DNA of 12,525 bases from Candidatus Altiarchaeota archaeon (GTDB lineage: Archaea; Altiarchaeota; Altiarchaeia; IMC4; SCGC-AAA252-I15): contig JBDRLL010000004.1 in assembly GCA_043813075.1 (NCBI GenBank), forward strand, positions 1 to 12,525. The letters run 5' to 3'. A program made the position numbers and the translations under genes. The notes beneath the pieces are model-generated. The model was not told the DNA's origin. It saw only the letters and a program-made list of their open reading frames with translations, and ran no database searches. This document shows positions 59 through 11,591 of the stretch, in pieces (position 1 is the first letter of the stretch; each line of letters starts with the position of its first letter).

Positions 59-2245
59 CAAGCCTTCACCCTCAGTGAAGAATCCTCGCGGAAGGCGGGC
101 TCTAGGCTGTTGGAGGAGCTTGGGGCTATGGGGGAGGATGATGAGGCGAGGATTGTGGTGAGGCTGAGGGATGACGCGAAATTGGGGAAAGAGCTTGCGG
201 GAATCAATGCAGGGGGCAGAGAGCTGGTTCAGGAGAAGAGGCTGGCGGCGATGCAGAAGGCTTACGGCAGAATCCAGTCTAACGTGCTATCCCGTATGGA
301 GGGAGAGGAGTTCAAGGCCAAACACATGTTCTACACTGCAAACGCGATGTCAGGCACAGCCAACAGGAGGGGCGTACTCAAACTCCTTGCGGACCCGAAC
401 GTGGAGTCAGTATCCCTTGACGAGCAGGCCACACTGGCCTTGGATGATAGTGTGCCTGTGATAAATGGGACAACACCCTGGAGCCAGAGCTATCTGGGTG
501 CGGGCTACACTGGGAAACACGAGACCGTGTGCGTCATCGACACTGGGATAAGGTACACGCACGACAACCTGGGGGACGGGTGGGGTAACAGAGTTTTGAC
601 AGGGTATGATTTCGGCGACTTGGACACAGACCCAAACGACCCCAACAGCCACGGCACCCACTGCGCTGGCATCGTAGCCTCAGACCACGCGACGTGGAAG
701 GGTGTTGCCCCTGAAGCCAACCTGATAGCAGCCAAGATACTTATGGCAGACACGTGGATCTGGATGAGCGACATCCAGGCTGCAGTGGAATGGTGCACCG
801 CGAACGCGACCAAATACAATATCTCGGTGATAACCATGAGCCTGAGTTCGACCACGAGATTCGACCATGAATGCGATGGGGGCAGTGAAGACGCGTGGGT
901 CCAGAACATGCGTGACGCGGTGAACGCGGCCTACGATGTAGGCATATTCGTCGTAGCCGCATCTGGTAACGACGCGGACCTGACTTCAACTGGCTCACCA
1001 GCATGCCACGATAATGTGACTGCTGTGGGAGCGACGTACGATGAGGACTTGGGTAGGCAGCCGAGCAGCGGGACTTACACGTGCGGGTGCTATGACGCGG
1101 ACGCGACGGTGGATAGCGTGGCCTGCTACTCCAACAGGCCCAGCTTCATTGACGTGTGGGCTCCGGGCAGCAGCATATACTCTTGCGGCATAAGCAGTGA
1201 CACGTCGTTCGTGTCGAAGGGGGGGACTTCCATGGCCACGCCGCATGTGGCGGGCGCCGCGGCAGTATTGCAGCAGTACAGCAGGGTGAGGAGGGGTGTG
1301 CCTCTCACTCCCGATGAGATTAAACAGCATTTGATTGCGTCAGGCAAGTCGGTGACCCGTGACGTGACGAAGCCGAGGATTGACGAGTGGAAGGCGATGC
1401 TTGACTTGGGGAACACCGCGCCTGTGCTTAACGAGACGAGCATCATGTTCGCCGCGTGCCAGGAGTATTATCTTAACGTGACGTACACTGACGCTGAGAA
1501 CAACACGCCGGAATTCATGAGAGTGGACATAGACGGCACCCAGTATGATATGACGGAGATGGATGCGAGCGACGTGGACAAGACAGATGGGAAGGGGTAT
1601 TATTATGACGCGAGCGTCACTTATGCGAGCCACGACTTATTCTTCACAGCGGGCGACGGATTCCTGAACGACACTACCGCAACATACAGCTTCAACATGA
1701 ATCCGACGTCATACCTCTCCAGCCCCTCATTCACGCCTGCCATGGCGGAGAGCTCTAAGACTTTCACATTCACGGTAACGTACACTGACTTGTGCGACCG
1801 CCCTAAGAACAGCATCAACGTCACCATAAACGGGGTCAGGTACGCTATGACAGAGTCCGACGCCGGCGACACGGACAATACGGACGGCAAGGACTATGAA
1901 CTGGACTTGACTGGGCTTGCAGTCGGCACTAAATCCCACTTCTACAGGTCTGTGAACGACCAGGGCATCGTGAATACGACCGGAGTCACCGTAGGCCCGC
2001 GTGTTAACGGTTCTTCCTCTTGCACGGGCGATAGTCCGCCTGGCGTTGGGAGTGCGCTGGACTGGACTGTGGGTCAGGAGACCATGTGTGTTGACTGCGC
2101 GTTCATACCGTCGACTAGCGGTTTGAGCGTGGTCCAGGACAGGCTGGTGCTCACTTCCGCTACAGTGTATTCGGAGCATGAGGTGGTCAGGCTGGATGGC
2201 GGGGCTGTGGTGTTGAATAATAGCGTGTTGGAGTTCATCGCGTGA
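2..2245 (+). CDS. S8 family (subtilisin-like) serine protease, probably secreted/surface glycoprotein; 5'-truncated at window edge
   Basis: The frame is open from base 2 (TTTTLEETTTTTVETTTTLQAFTLSEESSRKAGSRLLEELGAM...), so the ORF-track start at 110 is not the true start. Catalytic motifs: Asp VCVIDTGI, His HGTHCAGIV, oxyanion Asn ASGND, Ser GTSMATPHVAGAAA. A propeptide-like segment precedes the catalytic domain (…LLADPNVESVSLD) and beta-rich extra domains follow it. Confidence 0.93.
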   Translation, partial: TTTTLEETTTTTVETTTTLQAFTLSEESSRKAGSRLLEELGAMGEDDEARIVVRLRDDAKLGKELAGINAGGRELVQEKRLAAMQKAYGRIQSNVLSRMEGEEFKAKHMFYTANAMSGTANRRGVLKLLADPNVESVSLDEQATLALDDSVPVINGTTPWSQSYLGAGYTGKHETVCVIDTGIRYTHDNLGDGWGNRVLTGYDFGDLDTDPNDPNSHGTHCAGIVASDHATWKGVAPEANLIAAKILMADTWIWMSDIQAAVEWCTANATKYNISVITMSLSSTTRFDHECDGGSEDAWVQNMRDAVNAAYDVGIFVVAASGNDADLTSTGSPACHDNVTAVGATYDEDLGRQPSSGTYTCGCYDADATVDSVACYSNRPSFIDVWAPGSSIYSCGISSDTSFVSKGGTSMATPHVAGAAAVLQQYSRVRRGVPLTPDEIKQHLIASGKSVTRDVTKPRIDEWKAMLDLGNTAPVLNETSIMFAACQEYYLNVTYTDAENNTPEFMRVDIDGTQYDMTEMDASDVDKTDGKGYYYDASVTYASHDLFFTAGDGFLNDTTATYSFNMNPTSYLSSPSFTPAMAESSKTFTFTVTYTDLCDRPKNSINVTINGVRYAMTESDAGDTDNTDGKDYELDLTGLAVGTKSHFYRSVNDQGIVNTTGVTVGPRVNGSSSCTGDSPPGVGSALDWTVGQETMCVDCAFIPSTSGLSVVQDRLVLTSATVYSEHEVVRLDGGAVVLNNSVLEFIA
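1466..1903 (+). repeat. Two copies of a ~47-aa conserved core in the protease C-terminal region (about 1466-1609 and 1763-1903)
   Basis: YYLNVTYTDAENNTPEFMRVDIDGTQYDMTEMDASDVDKTDGKGY versus FTFTVTYTDLCDRPKNSINVTINGVRYAMTESDAGDTDNTDGKDY. Shared pattern VTYTD..V.I.G..Y.MTE.DA.D.D.TDGK.Y. Confidence 0.85.
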
Positions 2246-2575: not shown

Positions 2576-4096
2576 TTACTGTTTCTCTAACGCTTCTGTG
2601 ATGACTTTCCCGTCCATGTCCGGCTTGATGCCGAACATGTCGAGTACTGTGGGCGCCACGTCAACCAGGTCGGCTCTTATGACGTCAATATTCTTTCTTA
2701 CGCCAGGGCCGCTCATTATGAGCATGCCGTCTATCCTGTGCTCTCCGGTGTCCCGCCAGACGGGCTCCACCAGCTTGTAGTAGTTTAGGCCCCCCACTAT
2801 CCAGTAGTTTCCGTTGGGGACGATTATCACGTCTGGAGCCAGTTTGACTTGGCTGCCCTTGTATATGTCTTCGCGGCGGTAGATTTCCTTTATGACTTTC
2901 TCGCCGGTCCCAGGGTCTCTGAGGGTCTCGAGTTCTGCAATGAGCCTCTCCCTCTGCTTGTGGTATTCCTCCTCAGAGAGCTTCGGGTTCATGTATAGTT
3001 GGCCTGTGTAGTATCCGCACGTGAATACCGGTGTCTTGTCTGGGGAGTAGTCGATTTCGACTTTGGGTGGCTGCATGTCCGCCTTCTCCCCCTTGAAGAA
3101 TCTCACCAGTACTTTCCGTATGATCTCTGATATCCCGCTCTCCTTCATGAATCCTGACAGCCTGATAGTCCACATCGCCTTCTTGTTCTCCCACGTGTCT
3201 TCAGGTGTCATGAATCCCTTCTCTATGAGCCAGTGGTTTATGTGGACCCTGCTGTCCTGCCTGCCGAACCCGTGGTCTGAGAGCAGTATGACTGTGGTGT
3301 CTTCGCCGGCGGCGTCCACCATCTGCCCGACCAGCTTGTCGACGTGCTTGTAGTATTCTTCTATCGCGTTACCGAACTGGGGGTGCTTGTCTTCCATGTC
3401 GCCCCACAGGTAGTGTTGGATCCGGTCCGTGCCGGACACGAGTATCATGAAGAACTCCCAGTCAGGCTCCTTCTCCATCAGCTTTACTGCGACGTCAACC
3501 CGCTTGTCGGTGGTCTCGTAGAGGCTCTCCAGGAATTCCGGCTTCTCAGTGTTCATGAAGCCCTTCCCCTCCACTATGTATCCCTCATCCTCAAGCCAGC
3601 TCTTGTACTTGTAGGGTTTGACTGCTATGCCGGGGGACAGCAGGTCGCCGATGATCACTCCGTTAACGTCTTCGAGCGGGTAGGTCATGAGCACGTTCAT
3701 CACTATGACCTTCTTTTTGTTGTCTGACAGTATCCTCCAAAGCGTCTTCCCGTGCACGTCGTTGGCCATCGGGATGTATGGCTTGTATTCGCCGACATGG
3801 CACTGCTGGAATCCGTAGACCCCGTGCTGTCCAGGATAGTTTCCTGTCATGAAGGAGCTCCATGCCACGGGGGACACGTATGGTATCACGGAATGGAGTC
3901 TTCCCACAACCCCCTTGTCAGCCAGCTTCTTGATGTTCGGCAGCTTCCCCTGCTCCATCCAGGGTATCATGGTGTCGAGTGTCGCACCATCCAGCCCGAT
4001 CACGAGAACCCGCTTTTTAGGTGTTTTATTCTCCTTCACCGCACCCACGCTCGCAACAAGTGTGAATACCACTAGTACTGTTAGTAGCCTCTTCAT
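2576..4096 (-). CDS. Alkaline phosphatase superfamily protein (type I phosphodiesterase/nucleotide pyrophosphatase-like, COG3379-like) with N-terminal signal peptide
   Basis: Metal-site motifs IGLDGA, DRIQHYLW, LSDHG, GEHRIDG; putative Ser nucleophile in PYVSPVAWSS; C-terminal DVAPTVL…DGKV. The N-terminus MKRLLTVLVVFTLVASVGA looks like a Sec signal. There is no CxPxR sulfatase motif. Confidence 0.88.
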   Translation of the reverse strand: MKRLLTVLVVFTLVASVGAVKENKTPKKRVLVIGLDGATLDTMIPWMEQGKLPNIKKLADKGVVGRLHSVIPYVSPVAWSSFMTGNYPGQHGVYGFQQCHVGEYKPYIPMANDVHGKTLWRILSDNKKKVIVMNVLMTYPLEDVNGVIIGDLLSPGIAVKPYKYKSWLEDEGYIVEGKGFMNTEKPEFLESLYETTDKRVDVAVKLMEKEPDWEFFMILVSGTDRIQHYLWGDMEDKHPQFGNAIEEYYKHVDKLVGQMVDAAGEDTTVILLSDHGFGRQDSRVHINHWLIEKGFMTPEDTWENKKAMWTIRLSGFMKESGISEIIRKVLVRFFKGEKADMQPPKVEIDYSPDKTPVFTCGYYTGQLYMNPKLSEEEYHKQRERLIAELETLRDPGTGEKVIKEIYRREDIYKGSQVKLAPDVIIVPNGNYWIVGGLNYYKLVEPVWRDTGEHRIDGMLIMSGPGVRKNIDVIRADLVDVAPTVLDMFGIKPDMDGKVITEALEKQ

Positions 4097-4110
4097 CTTA
4101 TGTTTTCATA

Positions 4111-4138
4111 GTATATAAGTTCGGGGTTTATATACGTT
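4111..4138 (-). promoter_or_regulatory. Putative promoter (two TATA-like boxes) for the 506-aa AlkP gene
   Basis: The minus strand reads AACGTATATAAA (4138-4127) and CTTATATAC (4119-4111) in the AT-rich gap. Confidence 0.55.
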
Positions 4139-4142
4139 GAGG

Positions 4143-5396
4143 TTACCTGCTGGTCCTGTACTTCAACGCCAGCATCAGGAACATGACTGTGTATGATATC
4201 GTGCTCGTCCACGCGGCCGCGACTATCCCGTATTTGGGGAGCCACATCATGTTGAGTCCCACGTTGACTGACAGCCCGACGAGTGGCGTGAAGACGACGT
4301 ACAACGGCATCTGCTTGGAGGCGAAGTAGTTCATCAGCAGGACTTCTATGGAGATGAAGAATATCCCCGGTATCAGCCATATGAAGGGCTCCACAGACCC
4401 GGCGTATTCTTGCCCGAACAATGCGAGGAGTATGGGCTGGGCTGTGAAGTAGAGGAACAGGCACATGAACAGCATGAAGACCCCTATCACGAGGAGTACT
4501 TTGTTGGCGAACGGCTTCGCCTTGTCCTTGAGTGCCGTCGCCCTCGGGAAGAATATGAGCGCCACAGTCTCGGGGATGAGCTTCACCATGTCCGCCATCT
4601 TGGAGGACACGCTGTATATCCCGGCCTGGTAGGAGCCGAGGTAGTAGTTCACCATGATTATGTCGAACTTCAACACAAGGTATGTGAGCTGGGTGGCAAG
4701 GTAGACTTTGAATCCGTAGCCCACCATCTTCTTGAGGAATTCCGCGTCTATGGTGAAGCTGAACTTCTCCTTCAAGTATACGACTCCCCCATACGTGGCT
4801 GCGAACAGTACTTCGACTGCCACCAGGAAGAGTATCAGCTCCAGCACTCCGCCGCCGAGGAACATGAGTATGACCACGACACCCCCGACGAGGACGACAG
4901 CCCTCGCGAAAATCAGCAGGTTGTATTTCACGATGTCTTCGACCGCCAACAGCATGCCCTGGAAGAGCATGGTGAGTAGCGAGAACGGCAGGCTCGCCGC
5001 ATAGAATGCTATCAGGAGGAGCGTTATGTCAGGAAACAGGGAGGGTGATATGAGGTATACTCCAACCAGCATCGCCGCCATCAGCAGGCCCAGCACGCTC
5101 CCTATCGCTAGGCTGTTGCCCGCCGCCTGCCGGTAGAGGCTCCTGTCTGCGCCGACGAACCGGATGTTGCTGGCGTACAGCCCGAGGTTCCCGAACTGTA
5201 TCGCTATGGTTATCATCGCCACCAGCGTCGCGACTATGCCCTGGCCGCTGGGTCCGAGCGTACGGGCGACGACGATGAACATGAAGCCCATTATGAAGAC
5301 CGCGAACAGCCTGTTGAAGACTGTTAGGCCGCTGGATAGTGAGAACTTCTTGTTGAACTGGTCTATGAACGCGGGTATCTTTGACGTCATGCTCAT
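4143..5396 (-). CDS. Oligosaccharide flippase (Wzx/RfbX, polysaccharide biosynthesis protein family)
   Basis: 417 aa with about 12 hydrophobic segments. Family-type motifs ARTLGPSGQG, FGNLGL, KFDIIMVNYYLG…AGIYS, LFGQEY, LNMMWLPKYGIVAAAW. Confidence 0.88.
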   Translation of the reverse strand: MSMTSKIPAFIDQFNKKFSLSSGLTVFNRLFAVFIMGFMFIVVARTLGPSGQGIVATLVAMITIAIQFGNLGLYASNIRFVGADRSLYRQAAGNSLAIGSVLGLLMAAMLVGVYLISPSLFPDITLLLIAFYAASLPFSLLTMLFQGMLLAVEDIVKYNLLIFARAVVLVGGVVVILMFLGGGVLELILFLVAVEVLFAATYGGVVYLKEKFSFTIDAEFLKKMVGYGFKVYLATQLTYLVLKFDIIMVNYYLGSYQAGIYSVSSKMADMVKLIPETVALIFFPRATALKDKAKPFANKVLLVIGVFMLFMCLFLYFTAQPILLALFGQEYAGSVEPFIWLIPGIFFISIEVLLMNYFASKQMPLYVVFTPLVGLSVNVGLNMMWLPKYGIVAAAWTSTISYTVMFLMLALKYRTSR

Positions 5397-5399
5397 GTT

Positions 5400-6101
5400 C
5401 TAACCCCAGCCTCGGATTATGCCGTGGAAGTCTGTTATCTTCGGGTGGTCGAGGCCTGCCTTGTGGTTGAGGCTCCAGAATCCGTGGGTGCTGTGGTCTC
5501 CGAAGCGGCCGACCGCCTGCATCCCGTGGTCTGAGATCACAAGCATCTTTTCCGCCTTGCCGGCGGTGGTCTTCGCGAGGTCGTTGAATTCCTCGTAGAT
5601 TATCCTCATCTTGGATTCTATGCCGAAGCTCAGGTGGCCGATAACGTCTCCGGCTCCGAAGTATCCCATCACGATGTCGTAGTCCCCGTCCAACGCATCC
5701 AGGTATTGCTGTTTGATTTTCCTGTAGTGGGCGTAGACTATCTCGTCGAATTCCTCGACCGTGATCTTCTTGCTGAAGTAGTCTTTCATGCCCTGCCTCT
5801 CCCTCTTGTGCTGGTCGAGGTCTGAGTTGAATCCGGGCACGTCGAAAGCCACGTACTTCTTGCCATTGAAGAAGGTGTCGTCTTCACCGAGCTTGAAGCC
5901 CCACATCCTCTCCTTCCCCAGGTCGAGTATCTCCTTCTCACGGTTCCGGCCGGACAGGAATGAGCTCCATATGACTATGGTCCTCGGCTCCTCGAACTCG
6001 CTTATGTCCGTCATCCCGTAGGACTCCTGCATCAGATTCTTCAGACCGAATTTCGTAACGTAATCGTGTTCCAGCCCGTCGATGCCGAGTATCACGTCCA
6101 T
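5400..6101 (-). CDS. Short (233 aa) alkaline phosphatase superfamily protein, no signal peptide
   Basis: The true start is likely ATG 6101 (MDVILGIDGLE), with a TATA 22 nt upstream; the longer ORF-track start overlaps the SGNH gene. Motifs ILGIDG, putative Thr nucleophile PRTIVIWSSFLSG, DVIGH, ISDHG, GDHS. Confidence 0.82.
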   Translation of the reverse strand: MDVILGIDGLEHDYVTKFGLKNLMQESYGMTDISEFEEPRTIVIWSSFLSGRNREKEILDLGKERMWGFKLGEDDTFFNGKKYVAFDVPGFNSDLDQHKRERQGMKDYFSKKITVEEFDEIVYAHYRKIKQQYLDALDGDYDIVMGYFGAGDVIGHLSFGIESKMRIIYEEFNDLAKTTAGKAEKMLVISDHGMQAVGRFGDHSTHGFWSLNHKAGLDHPKITDFHGIIRGWG

Positions 6102-6123
6102 TCTTGAAATATTCGTTTCACCG

Positions 6124-6135
6124 TTTATAACCGTT
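6124..6135 (-). promoter_or_regulatory. Putative TATA promoter for short AlkP-flippase unit
   Basis: The minus strand reads AACGGTTATAAA, ending exactly 22 nt before ATG 6101. Confidence 0.62.
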
Positions 6136-7117
6136 AGGAGGTCATGCTGCAGGCCTTGAAGTATTCCGCCAGGTATTCCCCAACATACTTGTTGCCGTCT
6201 GGAGTCCAGTGGCCGTCCAGCGGCCGGTATGTCGTCCTCACGCCCTCTGATTCCTTCTCCAGCAGATGCTCTGCGACACCGGGTATGCAGGCCATATCCG
6301 CGGCCCTGCATATCTCCTCCTCCCTCCAAGTCATATTGTCTGTGCTGAAGAGGTATATTGGCGTGTCTCCCACCCTCTCGCGGACCATCATCATTATCCT
6401 CAGCGTGGTGTTGAATGCGTCGGCCTCTAGCTCGGGGCTTGCGGGGAGTATATCCTCTGCACCGCACCTCCTTGCCTGAACGTAGTTCTCGTACAGCCCG
6501 ACTATTGATTTGGCGGCCCTTGACTTCATCCTGACCCATGAAAGGGGTGTCGGATAACGGTATACTATGTCATCCCCCTCCAGGTAGGGTCTCGCATGCC
6601 TGTTGTTGCATGGATAGTATGCGGAGTCTAGCACGTGGTTGCTGTTCCTGTAGTCGTTCCCGCAGAACTGCCATAGTATCACGTCCGGTTTTATTGCATC
6701 ATAGTAGTCGTCTATGATAAGGTACTCCTGGAGTGGCCCGTATTCGGATGCGCCGAACACGAAGAATTCCATGTCATCGAATTCCTCCTCAAGATAGGCG
6801 TAGTATTCCTCCCCGTTCGGGGTCCACATCATGTGGGTGTAGGAGTCTCCGATGACGAGCATCTTCTTCCTGTCCGAATCCGGGTCGCCCCACCGTTTGA
6901 ATCCGCGGGTGGAGTATTCCACCGTGAAGTTGCGCACTACGCCTTCAGGATCCATGACGCTCCGTTTTTCACTGGTGTTTTCCTCGATGCCCCACCCGTA
7001 CCTGGTGACCGTAATCTCAGGCAGCATTATTCTGGCGGCGGCTTCGATCACTGCCAGACATATCAGTGAAGTCAAGGCCAGCAGGAGCATGTTCTTCCAG
7101 ACGCGCCTTGAAATCAT
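6134..7117 (-). CDS. Membrane-anchored SGNH/GDSL hydrolase family protein (AlgJ/AlgX-like esterase or acyltransferase)
   Basis: N-terminal TM helix ([22 protein letters not shown]), block I IGDSYT, block III FCGND, block V DGHW. The ATG overlaps the cysN stop (ATGA). Confidence 0.85.
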
Positions 7118-8337
7118 TCTACGATTATCCCGCCTGCAGCCACGTCGTAGCCTTGGACTATCACGAACCTGCCTAGCTCCGGGACTTCATTGAAGTTTTC
7201 CACCACTATTGGCCTGACGGTCTTTATGACCATCTCGCCGACCTCGTTCTCGTTGAGCTGTGGCGCATCCTCCTCAAGGACTTCTAGCGTGGATGAGTCC
7301 AGCCTCCGGTCTATGGATTCTATGCCGCAGTCTACTTCCTCGGTGGCGAGCTTGATTGTCACCCTGTCCGTCTTCTTCAGCGGCTGCTTGCCCATCCAGA
7401 AGACTTTCGCGCTGACGGTGTCGGTGACTTCAGGCAGCCTTCCGTCGCATATGATGCTGCCCCTGTCGAGGAACAGCTTGTCCTTTATGGTGACTCCGAT
7501 GCTCTCGCCAGCCTCAGCCTCCTTCTTGCCGTCGTCCATGAACACCTTGATTCCCGTTACCTTGGTCTTCCTGGGGTCTGGGAGCACGGTGACCTCCTGG
7601 CCTTCCCTTATCCTGCCGGACTCGACCCTGCCTGCGAACACCCGGTCCCCGCCCACCATATAGATGTCTTGGATGGGGTATCTCAACGGCTTCTCCGTGT
7701 GGCGTTCCGTGTTCACGAACGTGTCCAGTGACTCTAGTATGCTCATGCCGTCGAACCACGGCATCTTCTCGCTCTTCCTGGCCACATTGTCCCCCTCCTT
7801 CGCGGAGATGGGGATGACGTAGGTTGGCTTTATGTTGATGGCCTCGAGGAACTCGAGCAGGCTCGCCTTAACCTCCTCGAACCTCTCCTTCCCGTACCCT
7901 ACCTTGTCCATCTTGTTGAGGACCGCTATCACCTGCTTTAACCCCAGCATGCCTAGTATGTAGGCGTGCCTCTTGGTCTGCTCCTGGACGCCCTCCTCGG
8001 CGTCGACTATGAGTATGGCGGCCTCGGCCTGGCTGGCGCCGGTTATCATGTTCTTCACGAACTCCTTGTGGCCTGGCGCGTCTATTATCACGTACTCCCG
8101 CCTGCCGGTCTTGAAGAAGGTCTGGGCGGTGTCGATGGTGATGCTCTGCTCCCTCTCCTCCTGCAGATGGTCCATCACGTAAGCGAATTCTATGTCGCGG
8201 CCCAGCGCCTTGCACGTTCTTTCAATCTCCTGCATCTTCCCCTCCGGAAGGCTTCCCGTGTCGTAGAGGAGCCTCCCGATTAGGGTGCTCTTCCCGTGGT
8301 CTACGTGTCCTACTATAACCAGTTTCAAGTGTTCCAT
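7114..8337 (-). CDS. cysN: Sulfate adenylyltransferase subunit 1 (GTPase), no fused APS kinase
   Basis: [36 protein letters not shown] and a C-terminal LGRF…AGGII. It is in the same operon as cysD. AGGTGA lies 7 nt before ATG 8337; the alternative start 8343 is only 1 nt from it. Confidence 0.92.
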
Positions 8338-8353
8338 GCCCATTTCACCTTTT

Positions 8354-9196
8354 TTAGCCGATTAGGCTGTATATCGCGTAGGCCCCCAGGATGAGGGTGA
8401 CTACCCCTATCATGAGCCTCAGCTTATCGGTCTTGATTATCTTAACGGTGTAGGCTGATATCGGGACTGATAGTATCGCCCCCACCAGCAGGTAGGGCGC
8501 CAGCACCCAGTCTATCTGCACGCCGGTCACAAAGTACATGAAGACGCCGACCACGCACGTCAGCCCTTCAGCCAGCGAGGTTATGCCTATCGCATTCTTC
8601 TCGTCGACCCCTGACAGTATCTGGCCTCCCGTGACCACCGGACCGTATCCGCCGCCGCTGAGGCCCTTGTTGAATGACGCGAGTATGCTGAGCGCGGTTA
8701 TCTTCCTCCAGGAGAACGCGAACATCATGTTCCTGCTGGCGAGTATTACGGCCCCTATGAGTGTTATGAGCACTGCGATGTAGAGCTTCAGGTAGAATTT
8801 TGGTATGCTGACTGCTATGAGGACTGCGACCACAGTCCCTATTATGCTGCATGAGGCTATCAGCATGGTTATCTTCAGCGCCTTCGGCGCCTCCTCCCTG
8901 AACCCGTTCACGTACCCTATCTCGTGGAGCCTCCTGAGTATGTCCTTCACCTTCTTCTTGCGGGGGAAGAGCTCCACGTTCCCGAGCTCGTGGTGGGTGA
9001 AGCCGGCGAGTATTCCGGTGAACAGCTCCGACAACAGCACGGACGGCACTATCTGCATCGGCTGGAAGCCGAGTATCAGCAGTACGGGAGTGAGTATGGT
9101 CCCGTACCCCATCCCCAACGTCGAGTCCAGGTATTCGCAAACAAACGCTGTGGCGACTATCCCAAGACCAATCCATAAGGCCAGTTCAAATATCAC
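8354..9196 (-). CDS. Sulfite exporter TauE/SafE (TSUP/DUF81) family membrane protein, paralog 1
   Basis: Motifs [14 protein letters not shown] and [12 protein letters not shown] with multiple TM segments. The GTG start overlaps the upstream TGA and is preceded by GAGGTGA. Confidence 0.88.
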
Positions 9197-10032
9197 ATCA
9201 TCACCTCTATGAGAGTGTATGAGCCTAAGATTATCGTCAATACCCCGACCACCACCCTAAGCCTCTTGGTGGTTATCTTCTTCACAGTGTATGCTGACAA
9301 AGGCGTTGACATCACAGTGCCTATCAGCAGGTAGGGGAGCAGCGTCCAGTCTATGAAGTCGCGCGATACCAGGTACATCAGCACGCCGGCTACGCACGTT
9401 ATGGCCTCCGACAGCGTGGTTATGCTTATCGCATTCCTCTCGTTGACTCCCGAAATCAGCTGGCCGCTGGTTATGAGGGGGCCGTATCCGCCGGCGCTGA
9501 TGCCCTTGTTGAATGACGCGATCATGCTGAGTATCGTTATCTTCCCCCAGGAGAACTTGAACTTCTTGTTGAGTGTCGCGAGGATGAAGAAGCCTATGGC
9601 GAGCACCACGAATCCGATGTACATCTTCAGGTGGACGGTGGTTATGTGCGTCGCCACGAATACGGCTGAGACCGCGCCTAGTATCCCGCAGGCGGATATT
9701 ATGAGCGTCACCTTCAGGTTGTCTGGTATGTTCTGCCTGAAGCTCTCCGCGTACCCGATGTCCTTCAGCTGCTTGACCAGGCTCGTCATGCCATTGAGCT
9801 GGGGCTTGAAGTTCGCGTTACCCATCTTGTGGTGGAAGAATCCCGCGAGGAATCCTGCCACCAGCTGGGAGACGAGTAGGGGTGGGACTATCTGCAGTGG
9901 ATTGAATCCTATCGCCAGCAGGAGGGGCGTGAGGGCTGTGCCGTATCCCATGCCTGTCGTCGAATCCAGGTATTCCGCCACGAAGGCTATGATTATTATG
10001 GACACACCCAAAAGCAGCGCGAGTTCGAACAT
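9193..10032 (-). CDS. Sulfite exporter TauE/SafE (TSUP/DUF81) family membrane protein, paralog 2
   Basis: Motifs DSTTGMGYGTALTP and FNKGISAGGYGP. Colinear with paralog 1 over its full length, with GGGAGG RBS upstream. Confidence 0.88.
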   Translation of the reverse strand: MFELALLLGVSIIIIAFVAEYLDSTTGMGYGTALTPLLLAIGFNPLQIVPPLLVSQLVAGFLAGFFHHKMGNANFKPQLNGMTSLVKQLKDIGYAESFRQNIPDNLKVTLIISACGILGAVSAVFVATHITTVHLKMYIGFVVLAIGFFILATLNKKFKFSWGKITILSMIASFNKGISAGGYGPLITSGQLISGVNERNAISITTLSEAITCVAGVLMYLVSRDFIDWTLLPYLLIGTVMSTPLSAYTVKKITTKRLRVVVGVLTIILGSYTLIEVMM

Positions 10033-10038
10033 GCGTAT

Positions 10039-10044
10039 CCTCCC
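10039..10044 (-). promoter_or_regulatory. Shine-Dalgarno site (GGGAGG) for TauE paralog 2
   Basis: The minus strand reads TAA GGGAGG ATACGC ATG between the cysD stop and the ATG at 10032. Confidence 0.7.
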
Positions 10045-10848
10045 TTACATGTAGCCTAGGGCCCTCAGCTTCTGCATCATGTAGTCGGACTCCTTGTCCT
10101 GCGACCGTCCGGAGCGTTCCGCCACCGTAGTCGTCCTGAGTTCCTCGACTATCTTTTCGACGGTGTCTGCTTCGCTGTCTACTGGATGGCAGCATGGCTG
10201 GCATCCCAGACTCCTATACCTCTTCCCGTCCCTGGCCAGGTACATGGGGTTGATGGGTATCCCCTCCCTCAGTATGTACTCCCATATGTCGAGCTCAGTC
10301 CAGTGGAGTATCGGGTGGACTCTTATGTGCTGTTCCTCGTCGCTCCTGCTCTTGTACTGGTCCCAAAGCTCCGGAGGCTGGTCCTTATAATTCCACTTGA
10401 AGTCCTGGTTCCTCGGGCTGAAGTATCTTTCCTTCGCTCTTATTCCGTGCTCGTCCCGCCTGATGCCCAATAGTATGGCCTTGTACTTCTTCTCGTTGAT
10501 GAAGTCCCTGAGCGCCTGGGTCTTCAGTGCGGTGCAGCACTTCAACGCGCCCTGGTCGACGCACATTCCTTCAGCCAGCGCCTTATCGTTCCTCGCTATC
10601 TGCAGGTCGAGGTTCCACTCCTTCGCCCAGTGGTCTCTGAACTCGTACATCCGGGGGAACTTGTAGCTCGTGTCTATGTGTATGACAGGGAACGGCAGTC
10701 TCCCGTAGAATGCCTTCCTGCACAGCCACAGCAGGGTTGTGCTGTCTTTCCCTATCGACCATAGCATGCCGATGTCCTTGAACTGCTTGTAGGCCTCCCG
10801 TATCACGTAAATGCTCCTGCTCTCCAAATCATCCAAGTGGTCCATCAT
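10045..10848 (-). CDS. cysD: Sulfate adenylyltransferase subunit 2
   Basis: MMDHLDDLESRSIYVIREAY N-terminus, PP-loop WSIGKDS, HIDTSYKF, GIRRDEH..RAKER.FS.R, QPPELW, RVHP…WTELDIW, YRSLGC. The start at 10848 overlaps the RHH stop (ATGA). Confidence 0.95.
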   Translation of the reverse strand: MMDHLDDLESRSIYVIREAYKQFKDIGMLWSIGKDSTTLLWLCRKAFYGRLPFPVIHIDTSYKFPRMYEFRDHWAKEWNLDLQIARNDKALAEGMCVDQGALKCCTALKTQALRDFINEKKYKAILLGIRRDEHGIRAKERYFSPRNQDFKWNYKDQPPELWDQYKSRSDEEQHIRVHPILHWTELDIWEYILREGIPINPMYLARDGKRYRSLGCQPCCHPVDSEADTVEKIVEELRTTTVAERSGRSQDKESDYMMQKLRALGYM

Positions 10849-11054
10849 AGATACCCTAGTTTCCGTAGCTTCTCTATAACCTTGTCCTTCGCCTCCTCCG
10901 TGTTGTTCCACTCGTCTTTCGTGGAGACGATTTCCCTGAGGACGTAGGTGACGTAGTCTGACATTGACTTGAAGCCTGTCCCAGTTATCTGCCCCTTAAT
11001 CTTCCGGGCCAGGTCTTCGGGGATGCTCACTGTAGTGTATTTCGTGTCGTGCAT
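10845..11054 (-). CDS. Ribbon-helix-helix (CopG/MetJ/Arc-type) transcriptional regulator with acidic linker and LRKLGYL tail
   Basis: Beta strand YTTVSIP, helix EDLARKIKGQI, turn TGFKS, helix MSDYVTYVLREIV, then tail EEAKDKVIEKLRKLGYL. Translationally coupled to cysD. Confidence 0.85.
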   Translation of the reverse strand: MHDTKYTTVSIPEDLARKIKGQITGTGFKSMSDYVTYVLREIVSTKDEWNNTEEAKDKVIEKLRKLGYL

Positions 11055-11084
11055 GACAAAAACCCCTGCAGTACAATCACAGGC

Positions 11085-11126
11085 AATTAAAACAGTTTAA
11101 TTATAGGTAATTACTTATTTATAAAT
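11085..11126 (-). promoter_or_regulatory. AT-rich promoter/operator region of the RHH-cysD-tauE-tauE-cysN-SGNH operon, with palindromes
   Basis: TTTTAATT on the minus strand about 30 nt before ATG 11054. Dyads: AATTAAA-N4-TTTAATT (11085-11102), ATAGGTAATTACTTAT (11103-11118), ATTTATAAAT (11117-11126). Confidence 0.55.
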
Positions 11127-11136
11127 TAGTTTTTCT

Positions 11137-11283
11137 TTAATCCAGGTATCCGAGGCTCTTCAACCGGTCTTTAACCTTCTCCTCATCGGAGTTGGGCTTG
11201 ACCATCTCGGCCTCGTGTTTCGCAATCTCTTCCTGAGTCCGCCTTATCCCAAGCTTTATGAGCAGGGTGTTGAATAATCCCAT
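11137..11283 (-). CDS. Small 48-aa protein ending in the LxxLGY motif (not in the ORF track)
   Basis: MGLFNTLLIKLGIRRTQEEIAKHEAEMVKPNSDEEKVKDRLKSLGYLD*. The ORF is GC-richer than its AT-rich flanks and has a BRE-TATA (CGAAACGTATTTTAA) 22 nt upstream. Its tail matches the neighbouring RHH and CysD C-termini. Confidence 0.8.
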   Translation of the reverse strand: MGLFNTLLIKLGIRRTQEEIAKHEAEMVKPNSDEEKVKDRLKSLGYLD

Positions 11284-11305: not shown

Positions 11306-11320
11306 TTAAAATACGTTTCG
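11306..11320 (-). promoter_or_regulatory. BRE+TATA promoter of the 48-aa ORF
   Basis: The minus strand reads CGAAACGTATTTTAA, then 22 nt, then ATG. The 12-mer AACGTATTTTAA is identical in sequence and spacing to that before ATG 11701. Confidence 0.7.
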
Positions 11321-11324
11321 CGAA

Positions 11325-11591
11325 TCAGTAGGCGGTCTTCAAACGCTTCTCAGCCAGGTCATGCAGGAAAAACAAGTCCAAGGCCCTCCTCAGACTCTCG
11401 GGAGTCCTCAGCAAAGGATGCTTAGGCCTATGCAGCCTATGAATCCCCTCCATATCCTGCACCTCCCCAGACTTGAAGCGAACAGCCTTCAACTCCATGT
11501 TCTCATCAAGGATATACTCGGAGATAGCCTTACGGTTAAACTCCAAGCACCCTCCCCTCTCAACCAAAACCTTAAAATCAGACATCTTCAT
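11325..11591 (-). CDS. Hypothetical protein (88 aa)
   Basis: The ORF fills the gap between two AT-rich intergenic regions, has TTTTTATA upstream on the minus strand, and shows codon usage like its neighbours (GAG/AAG/AGG). No family recognised. Confidence 0.6.
   Translation of the reverse strand: MKMSDFKVLVERGGCLEFNRKAISEYILDENMELKAVRFKSGEVQDMEGIHRLHRPKHPLLRTPESLRRALDLFFLHDLAEKRLKTAY

Follow-up and report, generated by a model that had tools for sequence, protein, structure and literature searches.

In eukaryotes, microProteins such as LITTLE ZIPPER and the Id-type HLH proteins are small paralogues that retain just one part of a transcription factor, its interaction or effector module, and do not bind DNA. 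Among RHH proteins, the Mnt repressor combines the RHH domain with a C-terminal tail used for partner binding or tetramerisation. Two further terminal elements serve here as terms of comparison: the membrane-targeting helix of the MinD/FtsA type, characterised by a high hydrophobic moment with one hydrophobic and one basic face, and the HbYX motif of proteasome activators, in which the last three residues are a hydrophobic residue, a tyrosine and any residue.

Examination of an entire archaeal contig of 12.5 kb (12,525 nucleotides, hereafter the window), which belongs to a genome of 1.8 Mb in 41 contigs that is 89% complete (G000), revealed a microprotein resembling the first of these systems. 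It is a small relative of a presumed regulator that keeps a putative interaction module without the DNA-binding domain (48 aa, linker and tail present, RHH domain absent) and, as in the eukaryotic cases, it lies beside its presumed target or may be co-regulated with it. It differs from them in its prokaryotic host and in the module retained, a 16-residue tail instead of a folded dimerisation domain, and the heteromer is here only proposed. The microprotein is a concrete candidate for a prokaryotic microProtein, that is, a truncated paralogue of a transcription factor selected only for its effector tail. The features of the locus are the following:

11137 to 11283, minus strand: coding sequence of the microprotein, 48 aa, with an ATG start and its stop codon at 11137-11139 (from the ORF listing)
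11239 to 11283, minus strand: codons 1-15 of the microprotein, MGLFNTLLIKLGIRR, a short hydrophobic segment and then a dibasic pair
11188 to 11238, minus strand: codons 16-32, the charged variable linker TQEEIAKHEAEMVKPNS
11140 to 11187, minus strand: codons 33-48, the tail DEEKVKDRLKSLGYLD
11306 to 11320, minus strand: promoter-like element read from the sequence, made of TATTTTAA (11306-11313) with CGAAA 5' of it (11316-11320)
11325 to 11591, minus strand: gene of 88 aa, the upstream neighbour, a synteny marker with orthologues in 7 of the 49 genomes of the order
10845 to 11054, minus strand: RHH-plus-tail protein of 69 aa ending in KVIEKLRKLGYL, likely operon regulator and candidate partner of the microprotein
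10045 to 10848, minus strand: cysD, sulfate adenylyltransferase subunit 2, ending in MMQKLRALGYM (PAPS_reduct, E 2e-42; NF003587, 349 bits; 1zun_A, E 5e-63)

The encoded protein reads MGLFNTLLIKLGIRRTQEEIAKHEAEMVKPNSDEEKVKDRLKSLGYLD, exactly as in the initial annotation, including the quoted N-terminus and tail and the charged linker between them; the ORF had also been described there as uncalled, a statement that is not confirmed, the identical 48-aa protein being already a called protein in a public collection (source NCBI). No in-frame ATG, GTG or TTG occurs 5' of the start within the open frame. The coding log-odds amount to +0.36 per codon, versus -1.08 and -1.09 when the strand is read in its two other frames, a value above that of 99.9% of off-frame pieces of 49 codons and at the 20th percentile among in-frame pieces. 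The GC content of the ORF is 0.50, with flanks at 0.27 and 0.37, its GC3 is 0.69 for a genome mean of 0.65, and its codon usage matches that of the genome. The spacer of 41 nt separating it from the upstream gene contains CGAAA at -37..-33 and TATTTTAA at -30..-23 relative to the ATG. Across 908 long ORFs of this genome, the stretch at -36..-25 from the ATG is where AT content and TATA-like hexamers reach their maximum; its genes therefore appear to be mostly leaderless, and the box of the microprotein sits at the expected spot, in agreement with the BRE-TATA at leaderless spacing that had been proposed for it. A homologue in a genome of the same genus (G001) has a TATTTAA box at -34..-28. These signals, together with the homologues described below, make the ORF very probably a translated gene.

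A scan of the microprotein against Pfam and NCBIfam assigned it to 0 families, a search for homologous proteins returned the query alone and a protein atlas search gave no usable match. An exhaustive phmmer search over 1.84 billion representatives yielded four proteins at E 0.001 or better, namely the query, the metagenomic protein P0122, a 185-aa multi-RHH protein and a peptidoglycan-binding repeat protein. The matches found in relatives are proteins of 67-80 aa with an RHH N-terminus (..KYTTVSIP..L.EKI...I.GTGF.SVSDYVTFVLRE..), an acidic linker and a C-terminus of the form ...EDEEKVK[DE]RL[KR][AS]LGYL[DE]. This family is widespread: one query retrieved 251 clusters at E 0.001 or better, named in their sources as CopG family or RHH domain proteins and originating from Thermoplasmata, Altiarchaeales, Thermococcus, Archaeoglobus, Ferroglobus, Loki- and Thorarchaeota and an actinobacterial MAG; haloarchaea, Patescibacteria and a gammaproteobacterial MAG contribute additional members. 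No Pfam or NCBIfam model recognises the RHH-plus-tail family above cut-off, the weak Pfam matches of the tail being PG_binding_2 and POTRA, and an open-access literature search for the motif strings gave nothing relevant on the family or the motif. The sole invariant columns in an alignment of 27 sequences are the L, L, G and Y of the tail; in an alignment of 61 sequences, the P, T and F of the RHH domain are invariant as well.

A profile built from 61 family members, with the microproteins excluded, aligned to four microproteins over the linker and tail alone (model from 47/52 to 76, 31-35 bits, 32.9 for the microprotein of the window), leaving their first 15-18 residues unmatched; the N-terminus of the microprotein has no similarity to the RHH domain by this profile. 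With the tail profile, a search of 31,327 genome frames gave the microprotein at E 2.3e-10 and the neighbouring RHH protein at 6.3e-7, and nothing else below 0.01. The acidic linker and the C-terminal tail with its invariant L..LGY are thus found in the microprotein, and an RHH domain (beta-strand ..TVSIP.., helix A, G-T-G-F turn, helix B) is not. Compared with the CopG/RHH proteins of about 70 aa ending in ...EDEEKVKERLRALGYLD, it has in common the linker, the tail and the position at the head of a sulfate-activation operon, and lacks the beta-strand and both RHH helices. It is well supported that the microprotein is a tail-only relative of this family which would have lost the RHH domain and kept linker and tail, and equally that its short, hydrophobic, dibasic N-terminus is new relative to the family. 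The N-terminus was also considered as a remnant of RHH helix A or B and this was rejected: MAFFT placed the N-termini of the G000 and G001 proteins under different helices, and the independent profile stops short of them. The HbYX motif does not apply, the microprotein ending in G-Y-L-D with the tyrosine third from the end after a glycine.

The AlphaFold model of the 69-aa RHH protein next to the microprotein has helices at residues 13-23, 31-45 and 53-66 (mean pLDDT 75.5). A fold search of the PDB with this model gave no match at E 0.001 or better, and its weak matches were to NikR, ParD, Arc and omega (best E 0.19). ParD/RelB-type antitoxins and Mnt share with the RHH-plus-tail family an N-terminal RHH domain, a C-terminal contact helix and the position of first gene in an operon; unlike the antitoxins, the family has no toxin partner, and its fold matches are weak (E 0.2 or worse).

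The microprotein is the first gene of a minus-strand cluster that continues with the RHH-plus-tail gene, cysD, two TauE permeases, cysN and glycan and phosphodiesterase-like genes, so that it stands upstream of sulfate-activation genes on the same strand; the homologue in G015, a genome of another genus of the same family, is placed likewise with respect to these genes, and that in G001 is not. The TGA stop of the RHH gene overlaps the start of cysD (ATGATG at 10843-10848; ATGA), as in translationally coupled genes, and the GTG at 10911 given in the ORF listing is probably not the real start of cysD.

RHH-plus-tail loci were compiled from the window (10845-11054, minus strand) and from loci L005, L028, L033, L034, L038-L043, L046 and L058-L137. 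The RHH gene abuts cysD in all 7 loci of the window's own family. In the metagenomes, the first same-strand downstream ORF is a sulfate-activation or sulfation gene in 31 of 34 loci (Sat in 19, a PF01663 phosphodiesterase-like gene in five, CysD in four, a sulfotransferase in two, APS kinase in one, the other three being unassigned); loci L064, L091, L093 and L118 were left out of this downstream Pfam call as they looked the same as loci already included, and the CysD loci L111, L115, L127 and L130 were identified separately from it. Among 17 genome loci, Sat, CysD or PF01663 lies directly downstream in 10; in one of the others an APS kinase is convergent, and six show neither arrangement. The RHH gene thus heads such genes in 31/34 metagenome, 10/17 genome and 7/7 own-family loci, and we infer that the family consists of leader genes of sulfate-activation and sulfation operons. 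Judged from this gene order, it is most plausibly a regulator of these operons, and a candidate regulator of PAPS synthesis. Open-access literature on RHH proteins, sulfate adenylyltransferase and archaea contained no archaeal regulator of sulfate activation or sulfation, the sole match being an unrelated RHH protein of Sulfolobales. A widespread unnamed family is thereby singled out as probably regulating archaeal sulfate activation and PAPS-dependent sulfation, and the link of the tail to this specific RHH family goes beyond what had initially been read from the sequence.

In contrast to ParD-type proteins, the tail probably has a partner other than the downstream enzyme, because that enzyme varies (Sat, CysD, PF01663) while the tail is nearly invariant, and because CysD was not found in three of the five searched genomes that carry an RHH-plus-tail gene (60-84% complete). 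Self-association, a common ligand or a common factor are possible instead.

Comparison with relatives shows where the microprotein is constrained. The homologue in G001 is an ORF of 51 aa, MCLIGKLKSCLGLKKK...DEEKVKDRLKSLGYLD, with a tail identical at 16 of 16 residues. All 8 changes between the tail codons of the two genes are synonymous (8 of about 9.5 such sites; dS saturated), whereas 0 of the 38.5 non-synonymous sites have changed, and in a simulation of 8 random substitutions in the tail none of 200,000 sets was all-synonymous. By this measure, the tail of the microprotein is under purifying selection. The head of the ORF is much freer than the tail (pN 0.43 against G001, with indels), and the linker shows indels and low identity among the homologues. 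P0122, a metagenomic protein of 44 aa, is 73% identical over its full length (E 8.6e-9) and retains 12 of the first 15 and 15 of the last 16 residues with a shortened linker. In G015, a tail-only ORF of 34 aa, MCSEGEDGKGKEKKLSKKDEEEIKRRLRALGYLD, is located directly 5' of the RHH-cysD pair. The search for syntenic small ORFs upstream of RHH-cysD that had been suggested was therefore rewarded in G015, selection on the tail and the P0122 homologue speak for a conserved small gene, and no frame disruption was seen in G001, in P0122 or in X2, an independent run. The latter provides a 251-nt contig over 11022-11272 at a depth of 2.5 with a single listed change, 11224 A>G, which converts ATT to ATC and is synonymous by our reading. 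Contigs from X1 match short parts of the region alone, with less than 90% likeness.

Tail-only ORFs are rare: they precede the RHH-cysD pair in two of the seven such loci of the family (G000 and G015), occur in 3 of 61 genomes of the class and were not seen in the 80 metagenome loci kept, save three truncated by contig ends. In G001, the microprotein homologue follows the 88-aa orthologue at a distance of 2.7 kb, both being on one strand of one contig, the immediate neighbours of the homologue are an epimerase gene and an LPG_synthase_TM gene, and RHH-cysD is not adjacent. Synteny between G001 and the window is partial, by way of the 88-aa gene. Epimerase genes stand beside both the G001 and the G015 homologues, but by eye they seemed to belong to different subfamilies and were not taken as a sign of shared synteny. 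A C-terminal tail on the 88-aa upstream protein itself (...AEKRLKTAY) was also considered and rejected, as the orthologues end differently.

The distribution of the two RHH types gives an indication of the origin of the microprotein. G000, G001 and G015 each encode a cysD-linked RHH protein ending in LGYL and a tail-only ORF ending in LGYLD, and no full-length RHH of the LGYLD type was seen in these three genomes. Both full-length types occur in G002, 4 kb apart on one strand, and tandem tail-bearing RHH genes precede cysD in L111, L115, L123, L127 and L130, which suggests that the two types work together. P0123 (185 aa, ENA, on a contig of 1,025 bp) consists of an RHH domain, then an RHH with an LGYL tail, then an RHH with an LGYLD tail; it represents a natural fusion of the tandem genes or else a read-through in gene calling. 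Between the tails of the microprotein and of the adjacent RHH gene, 14 of 36 bases are different, so the microprotein would be an old paralogue and not a recent copy; the tail-only ORF of G015 differs from its adjacent RHH tail at 15 of 36 bases and keeps RLRALGYL. Most simply, the second member of an RHH pair would have shed its DNA-binding domain and acquired a short new N-terminus, the tail being held by selection throughout.

Taken together with the coding statistics, the promoter position and the profile that aligns to linker and tail alone, the purifying selection on the tail, the 44-aa homologue and the G015 ORF 5' of RHH-cysD argue for a microProtein-like paralogue, reduced to the tail, that would compete or form joint assemblies with its neighbour, the RHH regulator of the cysD operon. 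The ties of the RHH-plus-tail family to sulfate-activation genes, the absence of an LGYLD-type RHH from the three genomes and the tandem RHH genes point in the same direction, and we give this reading a probability of about 0.4. The tail of the full-length RHH proteins would be an effector or assembly element making a protein contact, and the microprotein would offer that element without DNA binding. It could then pair with the neighbouring RHH tail, or compete for its partner, and the expression of the cysD-cysN sulfation operon would be tuned as a result. This agrees with the idea, put forward in the initial annotation, of a motif presented in trans, for instance by an inhibitor. Prediction of a complex of two RHH-plus-tail chains and two microprotein chains gave a score of 0.02 for a mark of 0.32, which is evidence neither way. 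Several observations weigh against a microProtein-like competitor: the N-terminus, conserved at 12 of 15 positions between G000 and P0122, hints at a second function that a pure competitor would not need, the same segment is absent in G015 and much changed in G001 so that the family is not uniform, the G001 homologue lies away from RHH-cysD, and tail-only ORFs are as scarce as the counts above indicate.

An unlikely alternative, in line with the initial annotation, is a membrane-tethered adaptor, which would explain the conserved hydrophobic N-terminus. This dibasic segment would associate with the membrane, within it or at its surface, and the tail would bring a partner that binds it close to the TauE permeases of the cluster. 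The partner would be the RHH regulator or the CysD-CysN complex, with the regulator sequestered or sulfate activation localised as the effect. The first 15 residues are kept at 12 positions in P0122 even though the linker diverges, and the mean hydrophobicity of residues 2-13 is 0.57 in the microprotein, with a range of 0.51-0.57. However, the hydrophobic run comprises about 12 residues before RR, with a helical moment of 0.04-0.26, and the helical hydrophobic moment (Eisenberg) of residues 1-15 is 0.19 in G000, 0.11 in P0122 and 0.04 in G001, 0.04-0.22 across the four homologues, with none of the 11-residue windows in residues 1-7 above 0.5. Such values correspond neither to a transmembrane helix nor to a classical amphipathic anchor and fall short of the high moment of a MinD/FtsA-type helix; the N-terminus, first described as amphipathic, is better described as a short hydrophobic stretch with RR. 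Its counterpart in G001 moreover shows little similarity, and in the G015 homologue a hydrophobic N-terminus is missing altogether. The adaptor would gain from the DUF2061 membrane protein of a similar operon in L111, L115 and L130, which bears an added C-terminal ...GVIKKL[KR]DLGYI, an addition missing from the DUF2061 proteins that adjoin cysD in G001 and G015, and from the fact that DUF2061 was not found in G000 (genome 89% complete). Against this, the DUF2061 tails score 5-6 bits with the tail profile. The PF09834 (DUF2061) profile matches neither the microprotein nor anything in G000.

The operons just mentioned extend the tail to other proteins. In L111 (3485-6861), L115 (516-3889) and L130 (12-3319) the order is a double-RHH gene (ending in KLRKLGYL), an RHH gene (RLRSLGYLD), CysD (LRSLGYM), DUF2061 (...KKLKDLGYI), a HIT-family protein and CysN, and the C-terminal motif is common to four consecutive genes. 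One could imagine a portable docking peptide of about 16 residues that ties sulfate activation and sulfation together in archaea and certain bacteria, grafted onto two kinds of RHH protein, the DUF2061 membrane protein and the nearly free microprotein, and resembling the CysD C-terminus, with all of these competing for or assembling on one putative receptor or each other and the microprotein acting as a free, possibly membrane-held competitor that sets a threshold; we regard so broad a scheme as improbable. CysD (1zun chain A) does finish in a helix whose last residues are LGY plus one more (or GYF), its gene lies in the same operon, and the CysD end ...MQKLRALGYM is a family-wide trait, 1zun_A aligning with ...MEEKKRQGY and bacterial-type CysDs ending in ...KKEGYF. 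Unlike the microprotein tail, this segment forms part of an enzyme of 270 aa, and the likeness spans 8-9 residues with a profile E of 0.15-5, which is not significant. In the proteome-wide search with the tail profile, CysD reached E 0.8 and sulfatase-like proteins E 4-38. Over all comparisons with this profile, the CysD, DUF2061 and sulfatase-like tails scored 5-12 bits. Of the single LGY tail shared by all these proteins that had been put forward, the RHH-family part stands (microprotein E 2e-10, RHH protein 6e-7), and its extension to CysD and the sulfatase-like proteins is weakly backed. As far as profiles can tell, the similarity to the C-termini of CysD, DUF2061 and the sulfatase-like proteins is positional and statistically weak, and up to four genes per operon sharing an extreme C-terminal motif, striking as it is, would be no proof of a common function.

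Seven proteins of G000 were assigned as sulfatase-like from sequence motifs. They measure 435-503 aa, carry a membrane anchor at the N-terminus and have L[KR].LGY[VIL]D or something close to it as their last residues, and two pairs of them are arranged in tandem; their loci are C10 107141-109814, C11 14404-17331, C12 6075-7457 and 44796-46151, and C36 27114-28547.

It is far less probable than the microProtein-like reading that the shared C-terminus is a recognition tag, a degron or a modification site at the invariant tyrosine, by which one factor would read several sulfation-pathway proteins (the regulator, CysD, DUF2061) with the microprotein as a decoy buffering that factor. Four operon genes in L111, L115 and L130 ending in [KR]L[KR]xLGY[LIM](D) would fit such a tag, as would the 20 of 15,856 G000 ORFs of at least 30 aa that end in LGY plus 0-3 residues, three of them consecutive in the window and seven being the sulfatase-like paralogues. 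Most RHH-plus-tail operons nevertheless rely on Sat, an enzyme devoid of such a tail, three of the five genomes searched gave no CysD as stated above, and the tails of CysD, DUF2061 and the sulfatase-like proteins resemble the RHH tail weakly by profile (E 0.15 to 38). The sulfatase-like proteins, to judge from their N-terminal membrane anchors, are probably outside the cell. The string RL.SLGY is likewise present within unrelated proteins and among peptidoglycan-binding repeats (P0124), and given the weak profile scores the helix-Leu-Gly-Tyr ending may also be a generic structural cap.

Finally, a non-functional leftover, that is, a partial duplicate of the 3' end of an RHH-plus-tail gene still open and perhaps translated without a role of its own, would account for the narrow distribution (3 of 61 genomes and one metagenomic protein), for the fast-evolving head with its indels and for the lack of a Pfam or NCBIfam model, but it is unlikely in view of a tail with 0 non-synonymous against 8 synonymous changes at saturated dS, an ORF that survives the rearrangement of both flanks in G001, a divergence of 14 of 36 bases from the adjacent RHH tail that excludes a recent copy, and a TATA box of its own at the genome-typical distance in both G000 and G001.

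The surroundings of the locus deserve some remarks of their own. In L052, L053 and L054 the 88-aa gene abuts a subtilase gene, whereas the two are separated in the window by some 9 kb of genes for sulfation and glycans. This intervening segment (2576-11283, minus strand; flanks 110-2245, plus strand, and 11325-11591, minus strand) contains two PF01663-like genes, a flippase, a GDSL-like gene, cysN, two TauE genes, cysD, the RHH gene and the microprotein, and it looks like an inserted or rearranged cluster. A second copy, 100% identical, of the first 16 codons of the 88-aa gene is found at the end of another contig of G000 (C7, 3-50, minus strand) and may be an assembly overlap or a repeat. Within the cluster, an ORF of 379 aa (5400-6539, minus strand) has an Arg/Gly-rich stretch of 130 N-terminal residues without family match and a PF01663-like part from about residue 226, and its true start probably lies further downstream.
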